Of a DNA stretch of 22,159 bases, positions 1,009-8,808 are shown one piece after another. This DNA is from a virus (taxonomy: Duplodnaviria; Heunggongvirae; Uroviricota; Caudoviricetes). Both the position numbers and the translations under genes were made by a program. Below the pieces are notes generated by a model, which saw only the letters and a program-made list of their open reading frames with translations, was not told where the DNA came from and searched no databases. The DNA lies in IMG/VR virus record IMGVR_UViG_2671180847_000010, positions 1 to 22,159 of that record, one strand, 5' to 3'. Position 1 is the stretch's first letter. Each line of letters starts with the position of its first letter.

Positions 1009-1083
1009 GTCCTCTTAGTTAAATGGATATAACGAGCCCCTCCTAAGGGCTAATTGCAGGTTCGATTCCTGCAGGGGACACCA
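1009..1083 (+). tRNA. argW: tRNA-Arg (anticodon CCU), prophage integration target
   Basis: 75-nt sequence gtcctcttagttaaatggatataacgagcccctcctaagggctaattgcaggttcgattcctgcaggggacacca read directly; cloverleaf-compatible, ends in CCA, anticodon loop CUCCUAA. Matches my recollection of E. coli argW. Confidence 0.93.
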
Positions 1084-4538: not shown

Positions 4539-4670
4539 TTAATTTGCTCCAGATACAAGGAATCACCGAAGCATGGCTACGGTTGGTGTTTGTTGCATAC
4601 CGAAATGGTACGATTGTTGATTTGTACAGTAGGTTTTACGATGCCATTCCACCCATTTGGTGAGGCATTG
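4539..4670. promoter_or_regulatory. Divergent intergenic region between tailspike (-) and mnt-like (+) starts; presumed promoters/operators
   Basis: 132-bp non-coding spacer between two divergently oriented start codons; GGAG-type SD upstream of each start. Specific -10/-35 elements could not be assigned confidently by eye. Confidence 0.4.
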
Positions 4671-4928
4671 ATGATGTACAGCAAATACGATGAGGCGCAG
4701 TTCCACTTGAGGCTTACGCACGAGTTGCACGCTAAGATTAAGCAACGTGCAAAAATGAATAACAGGTCTATCAATTCCGAAATTGTGGCTACGATGGAAG
4801 AATCACTCTCCAAACCATCACCTGTAAGCGGGTATCGTGATGAAGAAGAGAGGCTGGCCTCATTAATCTCGGAACGAGTAAAAGAAGTTGTGGCTGATAT
4901 CCTTAGAAAAGAAAAAACCCGCAATTAA
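4671..4928 (+). CDS. mnt: Mnt-like ribbon-helix-helix repressor (immI-type)
   Basis: 85-aa product with an RHH N-terminus (FHLRLTHELHAKIKQRA..NNRSINSEIVATMEESL) and the segment SKPSPVSGYR, closely resembling P22 Mnt as recalled. SD GAGG 5 nt upstream of ATG 4671. The track's 217-aa ORF (4275..4928) is an upstream extension that overlaps the tailspike in antisense. Confidence 0.8.
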   Translation: MMYSKYDEAQFHLRLTHELHAKIKQRAKMNNRSINSEIVATMEESLSKPSPVSGYRDEEERLASLISERVKEVVADILRKEKTRN

Positions 4929-4936
4929 GCGGGTTT
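4915..4936 (-). terminator. Rho-independent terminator closing the minus-strand antirepressor operon; mnt stop codon lies in the loop
   Basis: Stem AAACCCGC / GCGGGTTT with 6-nt loop aattaa. On the minus strand the hairpin is followed by TTTTTTC TTTTC; on the plus strand the U-tract is poor. The mnt TAA (4926-4928) is in the loop. Confidence 0.75.
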
Positions 4937-4942
4937 AGTTGG

Positions 4943-5164
4943 TTAGTTATCAAAAAGTCCGTACGTTTCTTCTTCTTCAGGTGTAAGGGGAAGAATCTCT
5001 ACTCTATCTATAGATACCTTTTCAATGTACCCATGAGGTCTACTTAAAATTAAAGCTCTCTCATGCCACAGAACTCCAAGAATGTGATACCTTCCAGCAT
5101 CTCCTTTTACCCTGGCTCTTCCTTTGATTCTTGGCGGCATAATGCCATATCTTTTCTTTGCCAT
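4943..5164 (-). CDS. Hypothetical 73-aa protein, translationally coupled to the upstream antirepressor gene
   Basis: Start ATG overlaps the stop of the upstream gene (TAATG arrangement at 5162-5166); ORF ends just before the operon terminator. No recognisable domain. Confidence 0.5.
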   Translation of the reverse strand: MAKKRYGIMPPRIKGRARVKGDAGRYHILGVLWHERALILSRPHGYIEKVSIDRVEILPLTPEEEETYGLFDN

Positions 5165-5977: not shown

Positions 5978-6604
5978 TCAATGAATCCATTCCTCGCCGC
6001 GCAGTTTTGTCAGCATTGGCTGAGCGTTCTTTACGACAAAATTGTTGGTATCAAGATTCTTCATTTCACGAAGAAGTGATTTCTTGGTTTCTTCTGACAT
6101 ATAGCGAGTCTCATATGCAATATCGTAAATTCTTCCTGAAAGCTCAGAACCAATTTGCTTCATTCCTGGGTAGATGTGTTTGCACATTTGTTGACTCTTC
6201 TCCATCCACAATTGTAAGTAGCAGAGATTAACCAGTTCTTCGTCAGTAAACTGTTTTGCAATCGGTGAGCATTCTGCCTGCCGATCCAAAATATCCAGCA
6301 CCCAGCGGCGGAACTCTTTGGCTACCGGAGTGCGAGCAAACATCGCGATTAGGTGGGCACCGCGTAGTGAGAAAACTCGCACTTTTTTGCGATAATTTCC
6401 TGAGGTACTCACTTCGAGTACCTGAGTCATTCCGGCGCTAAACTCATCGCTATACTTGTTATAAATCATTGTTACTGCACGGCTATTTGCATATTTAAGT
6501 GCAGATGCAATATTAGATGATGTAAACCAAACACCATGCATATCACGGGTGGGCACCAACTCAACTCCGTGGAAGTTGTAATCTGATTTTGCTACAATAT
6601 TCAT
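5978..6604 (-). CDS. Bro-N domain protein (antirepressor-like)
   Basis: Bro-N signature (..GVWFTSSNIASALKY..KKVRVFSLRGAHLIAMFARTPVAKEFRRWVLDIL..). Start placed at ATG 6604 preceded by SD AAGGAA; the track ORF starts at an upstream TTG (6709). Confidence 0.8.
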   Translation of the reverse strand: MNIVAKSDYNFHGVELVPTRDMHGVWFTSSNIASALKYANSRAVTMIYNKYSDEFSAGMTQVLEVSTSGNYRKKVRVFSLRGAHLIAMFARTPVAKEFRRWVLDILDRQAECSPIAKQFTDEELVNLCYLQLWMEKSQQMCKHIYPGMKQIGSELSGRIYDIAYETRYMSEETKKSLLREMKNLDTNNFVVKNAQPMLTKLRGEEWIH

Positions 6605-6677
6605 GTTAGTTTCCTTGCATACGGTTACTGACATAGAGGCCCGGTTTGTGTTCGCGCACTGCCGGGCTTCACTATTT

Positions 6678-6851
6678 TTATTGGATGACAACATCGCCCT
6701 TTGCCTCAAGTTTCATCAATAACTCCATTCGATAAGCTATCTCTGCCTGAATTGACCTATGGCATCTTTTTGCTGATTCGCGGATATGTGAATCAACCTT
6801 TTCTGTAAAACGAACCTGACGCGGCTTGATGGAAGATATCTTTTCAGTCAT
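6678..6851 (-). CDS. Arc-like ribbon-helix-helix protein (57 aa), first gene of the antirepressor operon; absent from the ORF track
   Basis: Hand translation of the minus strand: MTEKISSIKPRQVRFTEKVDSHIRESAKRCHRSIQAEIAYRMELLMKLEAKGDVVIQ. SD AGGAG 6 nt upstream of the ATG. RHH pattern (beta strand QVRFTEKV, then two helices) and RSIQAEIAYRME resemble P22 Arc RSVNSEIYQRVME as recalled. Below the track's apparent 60-aa cutoff. Confidence 0.6.
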   Translation of the reverse strand: MTEKISSIKPRQVRFTEKVDSHIRESAKRCHRSIQAEIAYRMELLMKLEAKGDVVIQ

Positions 6852-6950
6852 TATGCACTCCTGTTTTTGAAAAACTCATAATCTCACTTTTTGTAGTTTG
6901 ATTATTCACTCACACTCAGTATGAGTCAATGAATTTTTTATGGTGAACTA
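6852..6950. promoter_or_regulatory. Divergent control region between the antirepressor operon (-) and the CI-like repressor gene (+), with palindromic operator candidates
   Basis: 99-bp spacer between divergent start codons. Contains a 13-bp palindrome GTTTTTGAAAAAC (6863-6875) and an inverted repeat ACTCA-gta-TGAGT (6914-6926). Confidence 0.5.
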
Positions 6951-7592
6951 ATGAATTTTGACGATCAATTCCCATCAAGAGTATCTCTGGCAAGACAGTC
7001 CAGGGGTATGACGCAGGCGCAGTTGTCAAAATTAGCTGGTGTTGTTCAACGTCAAATAGCTGCATACGAGGGTGGTGAGGCTAAACCACGGCTTCGTGTA
7101 TTGCAGGCATTAGCCAACGCATTAGGCACTACGGCTGAGTGGTTAGCTCTGGGTGAAGGTCAGGGGCCTGGAACAAAAAACGTCATGCCTGACGTTCTGG
7201 TAAAGCAAATACCAATCCTCAAACTAGATGAAGTTATGCATTACCTAAACACAGGTGAACATTCATCGTCTAGATTTCATCCGGCAATATACAATGTTGG
7301 TGACTCTGCATTTGCATTGACTATTGAAGGTGAAGCTATGACTACAAGTTCAGGTATTAGCTTTCCCAGAGGATCAGTTGTCACGTTCAGCCCTCTAGTA
7401 AAAGCTAAAAGCAAAGATTATGTAATAGCATCATTGGATAAAGAGCAAATATTGAGCTTCAAGCAGGTTTACATTGGTGAAATAGAGACAAACTTAGTAT
7501 CCCTAAACCCAATGTATCCTAATATTCTTGTTAGAAATGAAGATGTTAGTATTTTGGCAACCGCAGTTTACCTTGAAATCCCGTTGCTTTGA
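6951..7592 (+). CDS. CI/LexA-like repressor: XRE-type HTH plus peptidase S24-like domain with Ala at the nucleophile position (predicted non-cleavable)
   Basis: N-terminal HTH (MTQAQLSKLAGVVQRQIAAYE). C-terminal region aligns by eye to lambda CI: DSAFALTIEGEAM vs CI DSAFWLEVEGNSM, SFKQV vs TFKKL, LNPMYP vs LNPQYP. Nucleophile position is Ala129 (codon gct at 7335-7337); Lys171 is retained; no Ala-Gly in the linker. Confidence 0.9.
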   Translation: MNFDDQFPSRVSLARQSRGMTQAQLSKLAGVVQRQIAAYEGGEAKPRLRVLQALANALGTTAEWLALGEGQGPGTKNVMPDVLVKQIPILKLDEVMHYLNTGEHSSSRFHPAIYNVGDSAFALTIEGEAMTTSSGISFPRGSVVTFSPLVKAKSKDYVIASLDKEQILSFKQVYIGEIETNLVSLNPMYPNILVRNEDVSILATAVYLEIPLL

Positions 7593-7652
7593 TATCCTTT
7601 AGGAAGCGACACATTATCATCCGGTGTTCTGCTCAAAACTAAGGAGGTTGGT

Positions 7653-8042
7653 GTGAAGCTATTTCTTGCTGCTATGTTCTTATTCATATCTTTTGGGGCT
7701 ACAGCAGAGTGCTGGGTCGTTGGAGATATGCGCGGAATAAGCTATTCAGAACGAAATAATTTCCATCCGGAAGAAGATGGTTTTAGTGGAACATTCATCA
7801 TTAAGACAAGCGGTGAAGATGCTAGCATCACATATTCTGGGACAGATGCGGGCGGCATGGCTTACAAAGTATTGTCTAAAAACTCCATCATAGGAATCGG
7901 CGCGAATGGCGAAACTCAACGCGTTATCGACTCATGGGTAATACATCCTACTGGAACAGTTTTAATGTCAAAAACCATTTCCGGTTATGGAAATATGGAT
8001 TCAACCAAAGCTTTTGTTGGAAAAGTAAAAAGAAAATGTTAA
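7653..8042 (+). CDS. Hypothetical exported protein (signal peptide), probably co-transcribed with the CI-like repressor
   Basis: GTG start 5 nt after a strong SD AAGGAGG. N-terminus MKLFLAAMFLFISFGATA-E looks like a Sec signal peptide with an A-x-A cleavage site; two Cys in the mature part. No terminator between it and the repressor gene. No recognisable domain. Confidence 0.7.
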   Translation: MKLFLAAMFLFISFGATAECWVVGDMRGISYSERNNFHPEEDGFSGTFIIKTSGEDASITYSGTDAGGMAYKVLSKNSIIGIGANGETQRVIDSWVIHPTGTVLMSKTISGYGNMDSTKAFVGKVKRKC

Positions 8043-8063
8043 TGATAGGATTATGGCCCTACA

Positions 8064-8249
8064 TCAACAGGTTCCGCGCCCCTGAGTAATTCTGTTGCGG
8101 ATTTGCTTCTTGCGGTGGTTTAAGCTGGATAGCTTGGCTTCTGCTTCTGATATTTGCGCATCTAGATCTTTAAGCTCAAGATCTGAAAGTCGCTGGTCAA
8201 GCAGGGTTTGATTCAACTCAATGTTGTTCAGGCGTTCTTCTATGGTCAT
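8064..8249 (-). CDS. Hypothetical 61-aa coiled-coil protein
   Basis: ATG preceded by a strong SD (TAAGGAG, 6-nt spacer); heptad-like Leu/Ile spacing. It lies directly after a terminator U-tract with no room for its own promoter, so expression is uncertain. Confidence 0.35.
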   Translation of the reverse strand: MTIEERLNNIELNQTLLDQRLSDLELKDLDAQISEAEAKLSSLNHRKKQIRNRITQGRGTC

Positions 8250-8265
8250 GATTTCTCCTTATAAA

Positions 8266-8287
8266 AAACCCACCTGACGGTGGGTTT
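8266..8287 (-). terminator. Rho-independent terminator after the lipoprotein gene (possibly bidirectional)
   Basis: Stem AAACCCACC / GGTGGGTTT, 4-nt loop. On the minus strand it is followed by a U run (TTTTTTAT), 9 nt after the lipoprotein TAA. On the plus strand it is followed by TTTCATTTCTT. Confidence 0.7.
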
Positions 8288-8293
8288 CATTTC

Positions 8294-8713
8294 TTAATCT
8301 TGCTTTGTAGACGGTATAAGGGATGCGTTTGCCTCTTTTGGCTTCAAGGTATACATCCCACCATTAAATGGATCAACAGCAAGCCAACCAATTAACCCAC
8401 CAAACACAAGGTTTCCACCAATATACCAACCATTAGCATTGGCTTTGATTGGCAGGGTAACTGGTTCGTACCCATCCTTCTCCATAGTGATCTGGTAGCT
8501 CTTTTTGCCAAAATAACTACCATCTGACTTGGCAAGAGTTACTCCTTGCGGGGTCTTACCTTGCGCAACAATCACGCCTGATTCGTCTTTTACCTTAAAG
8601 CTCGCACCGGAAGGATTGCTGTTCACTTGCACAAGCTGTGTTTCGTCACCAACAATAGTTGCGCACCCAGATAACATGATAGCGCCAGCAACGACGCTAA
8701 TAATCCTCTTCAT
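8294..8713 (-). CDS. Prophage lipoprotein with PEGA-like motif, insulated accessory gene
   Basis: MKRIISVVAGAIMLSG-C has a lipobox (LSGC) after a hydrophobic signal. Segment NPSGASFKVKDESGVIVAQGKTPQGVTL...KDGYEPVT resembles the PEGA motif. Start at ATG 8713 (track ORF starts 4 codons upstream at 8725). Own terminator downstream; 83-bp non-coding spacer upstream. Confidence 0.78.
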   Translation of the reverse strand: MKRIISVVAGAIMLSGCATIVGDETQLVQVNSNPSGASFKVKDESGVIVAQGKTPQGVTLAKSDGSYFGKKSYQITMEKDGYEPVTLPIKANANGWYIGGNLVFGGLIGWLAVDPFNGGMYTLKPKEANASLIPSTKQD

Positions 8714-8808
8714 ATCAATTTCCATATCTAAAAAACCGGAAACATCCTAATGACAAACCATTCAAATGTGAAGCACGAGATAAGATCAATCCATCCGTGG
8801 ACGACTAA

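Follow-up and report, generated by a model that had tools for sequence, protein, structure and literature searches.

What silences the antirepressor genes of the P22-like (Lederbergvirus) prophage of Escherichia coli HS is the question raised by this locus. The corresponding part of P22-like genomes was named the 'ant moron' by Villafane et al. 2008 (PMC2629481), who described that of prophage HS-1 as carrying antirepressor genes with an 'apparent lack of arc', and suggested that ant control in HS-1 was unlike that of P22. We analysed a stretch of 22,159 nt of this prophage (the window), which matches NC_009800 at 100% identity and phage JEP4 at 99.3%, and focused on the 99-bp intergenic region at 6852-6950. 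This region separates two divergently transcribed genes, one for a ribbon-helix-helix (RHH), Arc-like protein of 57 amino acids, which is the first gene of the antirepressor operon, and one for a CI-like repressor. Two inverted repeats are located in it, palindrome 1 at the Shine-Dalgarno sequence (SD) of the RHH gene and palindrome 2 in front of the CI-like gene (Table 1). We hold with moderate confidence that palindrome 2 is a 434-type operator of the CI-like protein lying over the antirepressor promoter, that the CI-like protein replaces Mnt in this role, and that palindrome 1 is not an operator.

The comparative evidence came from homologous copies of the module. A DNA search of the phage collection returned a single match, JEP4, and a search of E. 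coli genomes returned 28 full-length copies, all at least 99% identical and therefore of no use for footprinting. Diverged copies were recovered by protein searches with the CI-like and 57-amino-acid proteins, which yielded about 120 homologous modules with about 55 distinct intergenic sequences. All modules shared the same layout, with a gene encoding about 57 amino acids, an interval of 97-105 bp, the CI-like gene, and antirepressor genes of the Bro-N/P22_AR/Rha type. The backbones carrying them differed, including P22-like tailspike settings and positions between siphovirus tape-measure and tail-tip genes, and the hosts were Escherichia, Salmonella, Klebsiella, Yersinia, Pantoea, Xenorhabdus, Morganella and related Enterobacterales. 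The three-part cassette is, judged by these contexts, mobile and moves between podovirus and siphovirus prophages.

The promoter of the RHH-antirepressor operon was located on the minus strand of the intergenic region. The sequence TTGACT-17-AATAAT matches the sigma-70 consensus at 10 of 12 positions, and TTGAC(T/A), separated by 16 to 18 bp from a -10 hexamer, was the best weight-matrix promoter in all of the distinct homologous intergenic regions scanned (46/46). Its position is also fixed, as the -10 hexamer ends 48-51 nt ahead of the RHH start in most homologues, and up to 53-63 nt before it in the few homologues with longer intergenic regions. From the spacing alone, transcription of the operon would start near 6894; in numbering from this start, palindrome 2 covers -32 to -20, positions 6887-6874 are +8 to +21, and palindrome 1 covers +20 to +32. 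On the other side, the start of the CI-like gene is supported by an upstream in-frame stop and a conserved SD, GGTGA, at 6942-6946. The earlier note on this DNA had placed both palindromes exactly, one abutting the SD of the Arc-like gene and the other about 25 bp (24 nt by our count) upstream of the CI-like start, and had proposed the two as the best operator candidates; it overlooked the operon promoter, the conserved block at 6871-6887 with its extra half-site, and the missing catalytic serine of the CI-like protein.

Palindrome 2 overlaps this promoter, and its arms were conserved across the diverged loci. The arms CTCA..TGAG were retained in five of six diverged lineages, with the spacers GTA, TAA, TGA, TTA and AGA. 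At loci whose CI-like proteins are 92%, 81%, 76% and 49% identical to that of the window, the site reads TCTCATAATGAGT, TCTCATGATGAGT, ACTCATTATGAGT and GCTCAAGATGAGT, respectively; the three central bases and the flanks vary, and the arms stay everywhere except at the locus with 71% identity (AGTGTTAATGAGT), where the dyad is lost. Within the clade of at least 99% identity, seven polymorphic sites were found, three of which are 6918, 6919 and 6920, and polymorphism was absent from ACTC, TGAGT, the -10 and -35 hexamers and positions 6871-6887. Because the arms are fixed and the centre is variable, the pattern fits an operator that is read at its outer bases and not at its centre. Among near-identical prophages, the alleles of the centre are GTA, GCA and CTA, together with G-GAA, in which the last arm base is changed, and this variation at 6918-6920 may tune the affinity of the operator. 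The pentamer ACTCA/TGAGT occurs four times in the 99 bp (forward at 6874, 6908 and 6914, inverted at 6922) against 0.5 expected (P = 0.0006, for a repetition test that was picked after seeing the sequence and is to be weighted accordingly), and there are five occurrences of CTCA/TGAG (P = 0.0016). A local dyad at the -35 hexamer is present in about 60% of clade representatives, with a sequence distinct for each clade. An alternative 17-bp dyad, CTCACACTCAGTATGAG (6909-6925), was not conserved in L041 or L043, and the 13-bp form was preferred.

Palindrome 2 is provisionally assigned to the CI-like protein because the type of the hexamer next to GTCAA follows, with exceptions, the recognition-helix residue of this protein and not the type of the RHH protein. 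The N-terminal domain of the CI-like protein is a 434-type helix-turn-helix (HTH), 40% identical to the N-terminal domain of 434 repressor, and the first residue of its recognition helix, QRQIAAYE, aligns with Gln28 of 434. Q or H at this residue is found with ATGAGT, P or S with T(T/A)GAGT, and R with TGTGT. Near-identical RHH proteins (type KPISYRP in L083 and L084, and the related L032) are located beside all three hexamer types, and RHH type KPMAYRM was found with both ACTCAT-type and ACAC-type regions.

When the C-terminal domain of the CI-like protein is aligned with its lambda CI counterpart, EGEAMT stands opposite EGNSMT, which puts Ala in place of Ser149, and Lys192 is retained. No Ala-Gly cleavage site was found in the linker, and the protein therefore carries neither the complete Ser-Lys dyad nor the cleavage site of self-cleaving S24 proteins. 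The loss of the serine appears to be recent and clade-specific, since the homologues at 81% and 49% identity and all the distant ones retain it (GDSM outside the clade). With nucleophile and cleavage site lost, repression by the CI-like protein would be unresponsive to RecA and the SOS response. JEP4 has a separate c2/cro region with P22-type operators, whose c2 product has an intact GDSM and is 26% identical to the CI-like protein. As this 99%-identical phage has a distinct primary immunity region, the CI-like protein would be a second repressor.

A further conservation island, the left block, lies between the inferred transcription start and palindrome 1, with which it overlaps. It holds ACTCAT (6874-6879, about +16 to +21), which repeats ATGAGT (6921-6926) in inverted orientation, and a further CTCA at a distance of 8 bp from ACTCAT. 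The pairing of ACTCAT and ATGAGT on the two sides of the promoter was present in all ATGAGT-type homologues, and concerted changes of the two hexamers were observed, namely TTGAGT with ACTCAA in L032, ATGTGT with ACACAT in L097-99, and CATATG/CATATG to CATGTG/CACATG from L089 to L090. Loci of Pantoea/Rosenbergiella contain two ACAC..GTGT palindromes, the most distant clade contains three copies of ACTTCAT, and L122 contains five copies of ATGAGT. The left block is probably a distal operator element that is bound cooperatively by the CI-like protein, the RHH protein or both.

These observations suggest the following mode of control. The strong minus-strand sigma-70 promoter would drive the RHH-antirepressor operon, and a CI-like dimer at the 13-bp palindrome 2 would block RNA polymerase and keep the antirepressor silent in the lysogen. 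The CI-like protein would then be the functional analogue of P22 Mnt, and the RHH protein the analogue of Arc, a feedback repressor encoded by its own operon. Both the pairing of protein with site and the regulatory outcome are deduced here from sequence features, conservation, covariation, protein families and active-site assignments.

Several observations weigh against the assignment of palindrome 2 to the CI-like protein. Taken by themselves, the palindromes are within chance expectation, as at least two 5+5 repeats arose with P = 0.15 in 5000 dinucleotide shuffles of the 99-bp region. About 40% of clade representatives are without a local dyad, which is also missing in L046 (the locus at 71%), and the conservation of the right arm is partly that of the promoter, since this arm overlaps the -35 hexamer. 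The correspondence between residue and hexamer has exceptions in the L089 clade (Q, with a different palindrome) and in L122 (V, with ATGAGT). In addition, the CI-like and RHH genes are tightly linked, so most of the covariation is confounded by shared descent, and its separation relies on few natural recombinants. In the L028/L037/L084 clade, the left and right hexamers are unmatched, and a solitary half-site such as the distal ACTCAT is not what a CI-type dimer usually binds. Finally, a plus-strand scan of the homologous regions gave no consistent high-scoring promoter for the CI-like gene; two arrangements are candidates in the window, one pairing a -35 at 6899-6904 with a -10 at 6920-6925 and the other having its -10 at 6900-6905.

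A more elaborate form of CI-like control is tentative, and we consider it unlikely. The cassette would be a self-contained, horizontally mobile anti-immunity switch, in which a protease-dead CI/434-type protein has assumed the part of Mnt and clamps the promoter through flanking half-sites by wrapping or looping the DNA. The half-sites at 6874-6879 and 6921-6926, 47 bp apart, together with the local dyad, would serve in place of adjacent operators, and the degenerate S24 domain would be a sensor or an interaction surface for a signal other than RecA.

An alternative that we also rate as improbable, with about one chance in five, is that the TGAG/CTCA repeats of palindrome 2 and the left block are sites of the RHH protein, and that the CI-like protein binds elsewhere or acts only indirectly. 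The RHH protein would bind short direct and inverted repeats, as omega, CopG and MetJ do. P22 Arc binds between the -35 and -10 hexamers of Pant, which is the position of palindrome 2. The left block repeats in tandem every 8 bp, as GTGAGATTATGAGT on the minus strand, pairs resembling TGNG-N4-TGNG are found at its position with several types of CI, and 'AAAACTCATA' was retained in all clades with RHH type A, including the L089 clade with its different CI-type palindrome. The strand residues K9 and R14 and the RS turn of the RHH protein are invariant. However, near-identical RHH proteins (L083 and L084) adjoin unrelated control regions, ACTCAT-type as well as ACAC-type regions are found with RHH type B, and the promoter-proximal hexamer partitions with the recognition-helix residue of the CI-like protein. 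No motif that tracks RHH type was found by covariation across the homologous regions. Palindromes centred on the -10 hexamer in some clades (such as AGCATAATATGCT in L047 and AGGATGATTATTATCCT in L084) were considered as RHH operators and rejected, as they differ between loci with the same RHH protein. As an RHH operator, the best candidate is the set of TGAG repeats at 8-bp spacing in the left block.

The assignment of the 57-amino-acid protein to the RHH family was itself based on weak and concordant matches, to ParD_like in Pfam (8e-4) and, among PDB profiles, to CopG (0.019) and also Arc. The alignment with P22 Arc by hhalign was in register (P = 4.6e-4; a match to Mnt was at 1.7e-3), and P10, Q12 and R14 align with Q9, N11 and R13 of Arc. 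An AlphaFold2 model of the monomer, from a shallow alignment, gave a single long helix with a predicted local distance difference test score (pLDDT) of 83 and was uninformative because the RHH fold exists only as an intertwined dimer.

It is less probable still that there is no dedicated operator, and that palindrome 2 is kept only for its right arm, as the -35 region of the operon promoter, and for its centre (CAxxAT), as the -10 of an overlapping CI-like promoter, with palindrome 1 and the dyad symmetry due to chance in an AT-rich region. Neither palindrome beats the shuffles, TGAGT overlaps TTGACT, and in L041, L043 and L036 a good plus-strand promoter has its -10 exactly at the centre of palindrome 2 (TTGGTG-17-CATAAT, TTGTTG-17-CATGAT and TTAACA-17-TAATAT, respectively). 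Yet the -10 candidates of the window, CAGTAT and TATGAG, are poor, and the left arm CTC(A) lies outside both the -35 and the proposed -10 and is still kept while its neighbours vary. The enrichment of ACTCA/TGAGT and the co-change of distal inverted copies with the proximal hexamer in several clades also argue against this alternative and for an operator at palindrome 2.

Palindrome 1 adjoins the minus-strand SD AGGAG (CTCCT on the plus strand, 6858-6862) of the 57-amino-acid gene, which starts at 6851. We regard it as very doubtful that it is an operator of the Arc-like protein or Mnt, blocking transcription or translation of the operon near the SD. In favour of such a role, its 6-bp arms pair perfectly and it falls between the SD and the inferred start, its central base is commonly G/A polymorphic, which the dyad tolerates, and the character of a T-run followed by an A-run is common at that position. 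On the other hand, the dyad erodes without compensatory changes in L041 (GTTTATGTAAAAC, 4/6 dyad pairs kept), L043 (GTTTATGAAAAAC, 5/6), L045 (GTATCTAATAAAC, 3/6) and L046 (GTTTTATAAAAAC, 5/6), and it is lost in L047. The L027 and L089 clades lack it as well, with the RHH beta-strand (KPRQVRF) unchanged. At least one perfect 6+6 inverted repeat with a spacer of at most 3 arose with P = 0.14 in 5000 dinucleotide shuffles of the 99-bp region, and the leader RNA was unstructured (z = -0.25). What is conserved is the T-run and the A-run, which in the mRNA form an A-rich stretch just upstream of the SD. Palindrome 1 is probably an incidental junction of a T-tract and an A-tract in the AU-rich leader, and not a specific operator. 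Of the two operator candidates in the earlier note, palindrome 2 is thus upheld by promoter overlap, conserved arms and its agreement with the CI-like clade, and palindrome 1 is not; the phylogenetic footprinting proposed there supported the arms of palindrome 2 and went against the dyad of palindrome 1, even among loci with the same RHH type.

The Mnt homologue, proposed earlier as a third regulator beside the CI-like and Arc-like proteins of the divergent region, is a doubtful participant. It is located about 1.9 kb away, in the interval from the operon end to the tailspike gene, and is convergent with the operon, with which it shares a bidirectional terminator-like hairpin at 4915-4936. Its beta-strand, AQFHLRL, is unlike that of P22 Mnt. 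In the region upstream of mnt (4539-4670), no convincing dyad that could be a Mnt operator was found, and no similarity to P22 beyond the tailspike leader. The homologue was found only in P22-like backbones, including L034, which has an 89% identical Mnt and a different cassette control region, and was absent from siphovirus-borne cassettes. Because Mnt follows the P22-like backbone and not the cassette, it is unlikely to act at 6852-6950, and its lack of linkage counts against palindrome 1 as a Mnt site.

Control of the operon by SOS, through host LexA or RecA-stimulated self-cleavage of the CI-like protein, has a negligible probability, for although LexA control extends to many antirepressor genes, those of Gifsy phages included (cited in PMC7067206), and the CI-like protein carries an S24 domain, its catalytic Ser is Ala, it has no Ala-Gly site, and no CTGT-N8-ACAG with up to two mismatches occurs in 6852-6950, in agreement with the earlier note, which had seen no LexA box and no evident SOS control. 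Over the whole window, such matches number 80 against 89.6 expected.

Table 1 Features of the control region and of the surrounding genes in the window.
Feature	Position	Strand	Basis or remark
Palindrome 2 ACTCAgtaTGAGT, ACTCA-N3-TGAGT, proposed operator	6914-6926		24 nt before CI-like ATG (6951)
Invariant block ATGAGTCAATG, right half-site fused to -35	6921-6931		invariant in alignment A4
-35 hexamer TTGACT	6929-6924	-	consensus scan
-10 hexamer AATAAT	6906-6901	-	17-bp spacing from TTGACT
Left block AAACTCATAATCTCAC	6871-6887		conservation island in alignment A4
Palindrome 1 GTTTTTGAAAAAC	6863-6875		6-bp arms, central G
CI-like repressor, 213 amino acids, HTH_3 + Peptidase_S24	6951-7592	+	Pfam; divergent from operon
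EGEAMT codons of CI-like gene	7326-7337	+
RHH (Arc-like) gene, 57 amino acids, first in operon	6851-6678	-	Pfam ParD_like 8e-4, CopG/Arc profile matches
Candidate antisense RNA, sar-like	6590-6685	+	extended -10 TGcTACAAT (6590-6598), two hairpins, U-run
Antirepressor, Bro-N + P22_AR_C domains, second in operon	6604-5978	-	Pfam; JEP4 annotation
KilA-like gene, after antirepressor	5889-5164	-	Pfam; JEP4 annotation
orf73, after KilA-like gene	4943-5164	-	same operon
Mnt homologue	4671-4928	+	Pfam Arc 1e-14; LSKPSPVSGYR motif
Protein of 129 amino acids with signal peptide	7653-8042	+
Protein of 61 amino acids	8064-8249	-
Lipoprotein-like PEGA-domain protein, 143 amino acids	8294-8725	-

The candidate antisense RNA spans the ribosome-binding site of the antirepressor gene, with a minimum free energy of -33.8 kcal/mol (z = -5.0). 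Hairpin arms lie at 6636-6644/6662-6670, and the loop of the first hairpin is complementary to the antirepressor SD. Rfam gave nothing above threshold in the window besides a tRNA, and an E-value search of 6500-7000 gave a weak symR-like match alone (E = 0.09). Positions 6600-6684 are common to E. coli prophages with a canonical Arc gene, and many genomes have an 85% match to 6634-6687 close to Icd-like genes.

A second perfect ACTC-N5-GAGT, ACTCACTTCGAGT, is located at 6407-6419 inside the antirepressor gene, nested in an inverted repeat with 8-bp arms AGGTACTC/GAGTACCT (6403-6423), after which comes TGAGTCA. The expectation over the window is about 0.3 such sites. The site may have arisen by chance or may act as a distal operator, some 500 bp away from palindrome 2.

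Annotations of the two divergent genes vary. The CI-like gene is 'repressor protein C2' with a later start in JEP4 (L001, 5424-5993) and 'helix-turn-helix domain-containing protein' in RefSeq, and in several metagenome contigs its start was placed too far upstream, at an ATG within the operator. The 57-amino-acid RHH protein is annotated as 'hypothetical protein' nearly everywhere. Many distant CI-like homologues (265-287 amino acids) have a coiled-coil-like C-terminal extension of about 60 residues past the S24 domain, which is absent from the protein of the window. Between the CI-like gene and the gene 16 homologue (7600-8800) lie three small genes, probably extra morons, as the JEP4 annotation has nothing there. 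A tRNA gene at 1009-1080 (plus strand, 63 bits), near the left end of the window and the tailspike end of the prophage, may mark where the prophage integrated.

Induction of a prophage, and also of prophages of other phages that share its cell, is decided by antirepressors; what silences these bears on prophage stability and cross-induction. Our literature search found no paper that characterises this cassette. For the ant genes of the HS prophage, a cryptic RHH protein and a CI-like protein without catalytic serine are the likely controllers, which speaks to the remark made in 2008 (PMC2629481). The cassette is a widespread, previously uncharacterised variant of the P22 immI type, and the palindrome itself is routine phage biology.

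Three known systems are close to this arrangement. In the LexA-controlled antirepressors of Gifsy, 186 (Tum) and N15 (AntC), as would be the case here, the antirepressor is silenced by a promoter-bound repressor of the LexA/CI (S24) superfamily. In contrast, the repressor of the window is phage-encoded beside its target, and no link to DNA damage is evident, as there is no LexA box and the CI-like protein should not cleave itself. The repressors of 434 and lambda share with the CI-like protein the 434-like N-terminal domain and the lambda CI-like C-terminal domain, and their operators share with palindrome 2 a short dyad over a promoter, conserved outer bases in the half-sites, a variable centre and several half-site copies. 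The differences are that the candidate operator of the window is 13 bp (ACTCA-N3-TGAGT) and not 14 or 17 bp, that one clear dyad is accompanied by lone half-sites 40-47 bp off in place of three adjacent operators, that the protein is without catalytic serine, and that it would control the antirepressor operon and not lytic early promoters, with the c2/cro region being separate.

The closest system is P22 immI (mnt/arc-ant/sar), which occupies the same genomic place, from the gene 16 homologue to the tailspike. As in immI, a small RHH repressor gene is first in the antirepressor operon, directly upstream of the antirepressor gene, the short control region, about 100 bp long, is shared with a divergent gene for the presumed maintenance repressor, and the antirepressor ribosome-binding site may be covered by an antisense RNA, here a candidate. 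Unlike in P22, where the divergent repressor is the RHH tetramer Mnt, that of the window is a 213-amino-acid HTH/S24 protein; its RHH protein has diverged from Arc far enough to have been reported as absent (PMC2629481), and its operator candidates are unrelated to those of Arc and Mnt. Mnt in the window lies 1.9 kb away in convergent orientation, and the cassette occurs also among siphovirus tail genes without Mnt.

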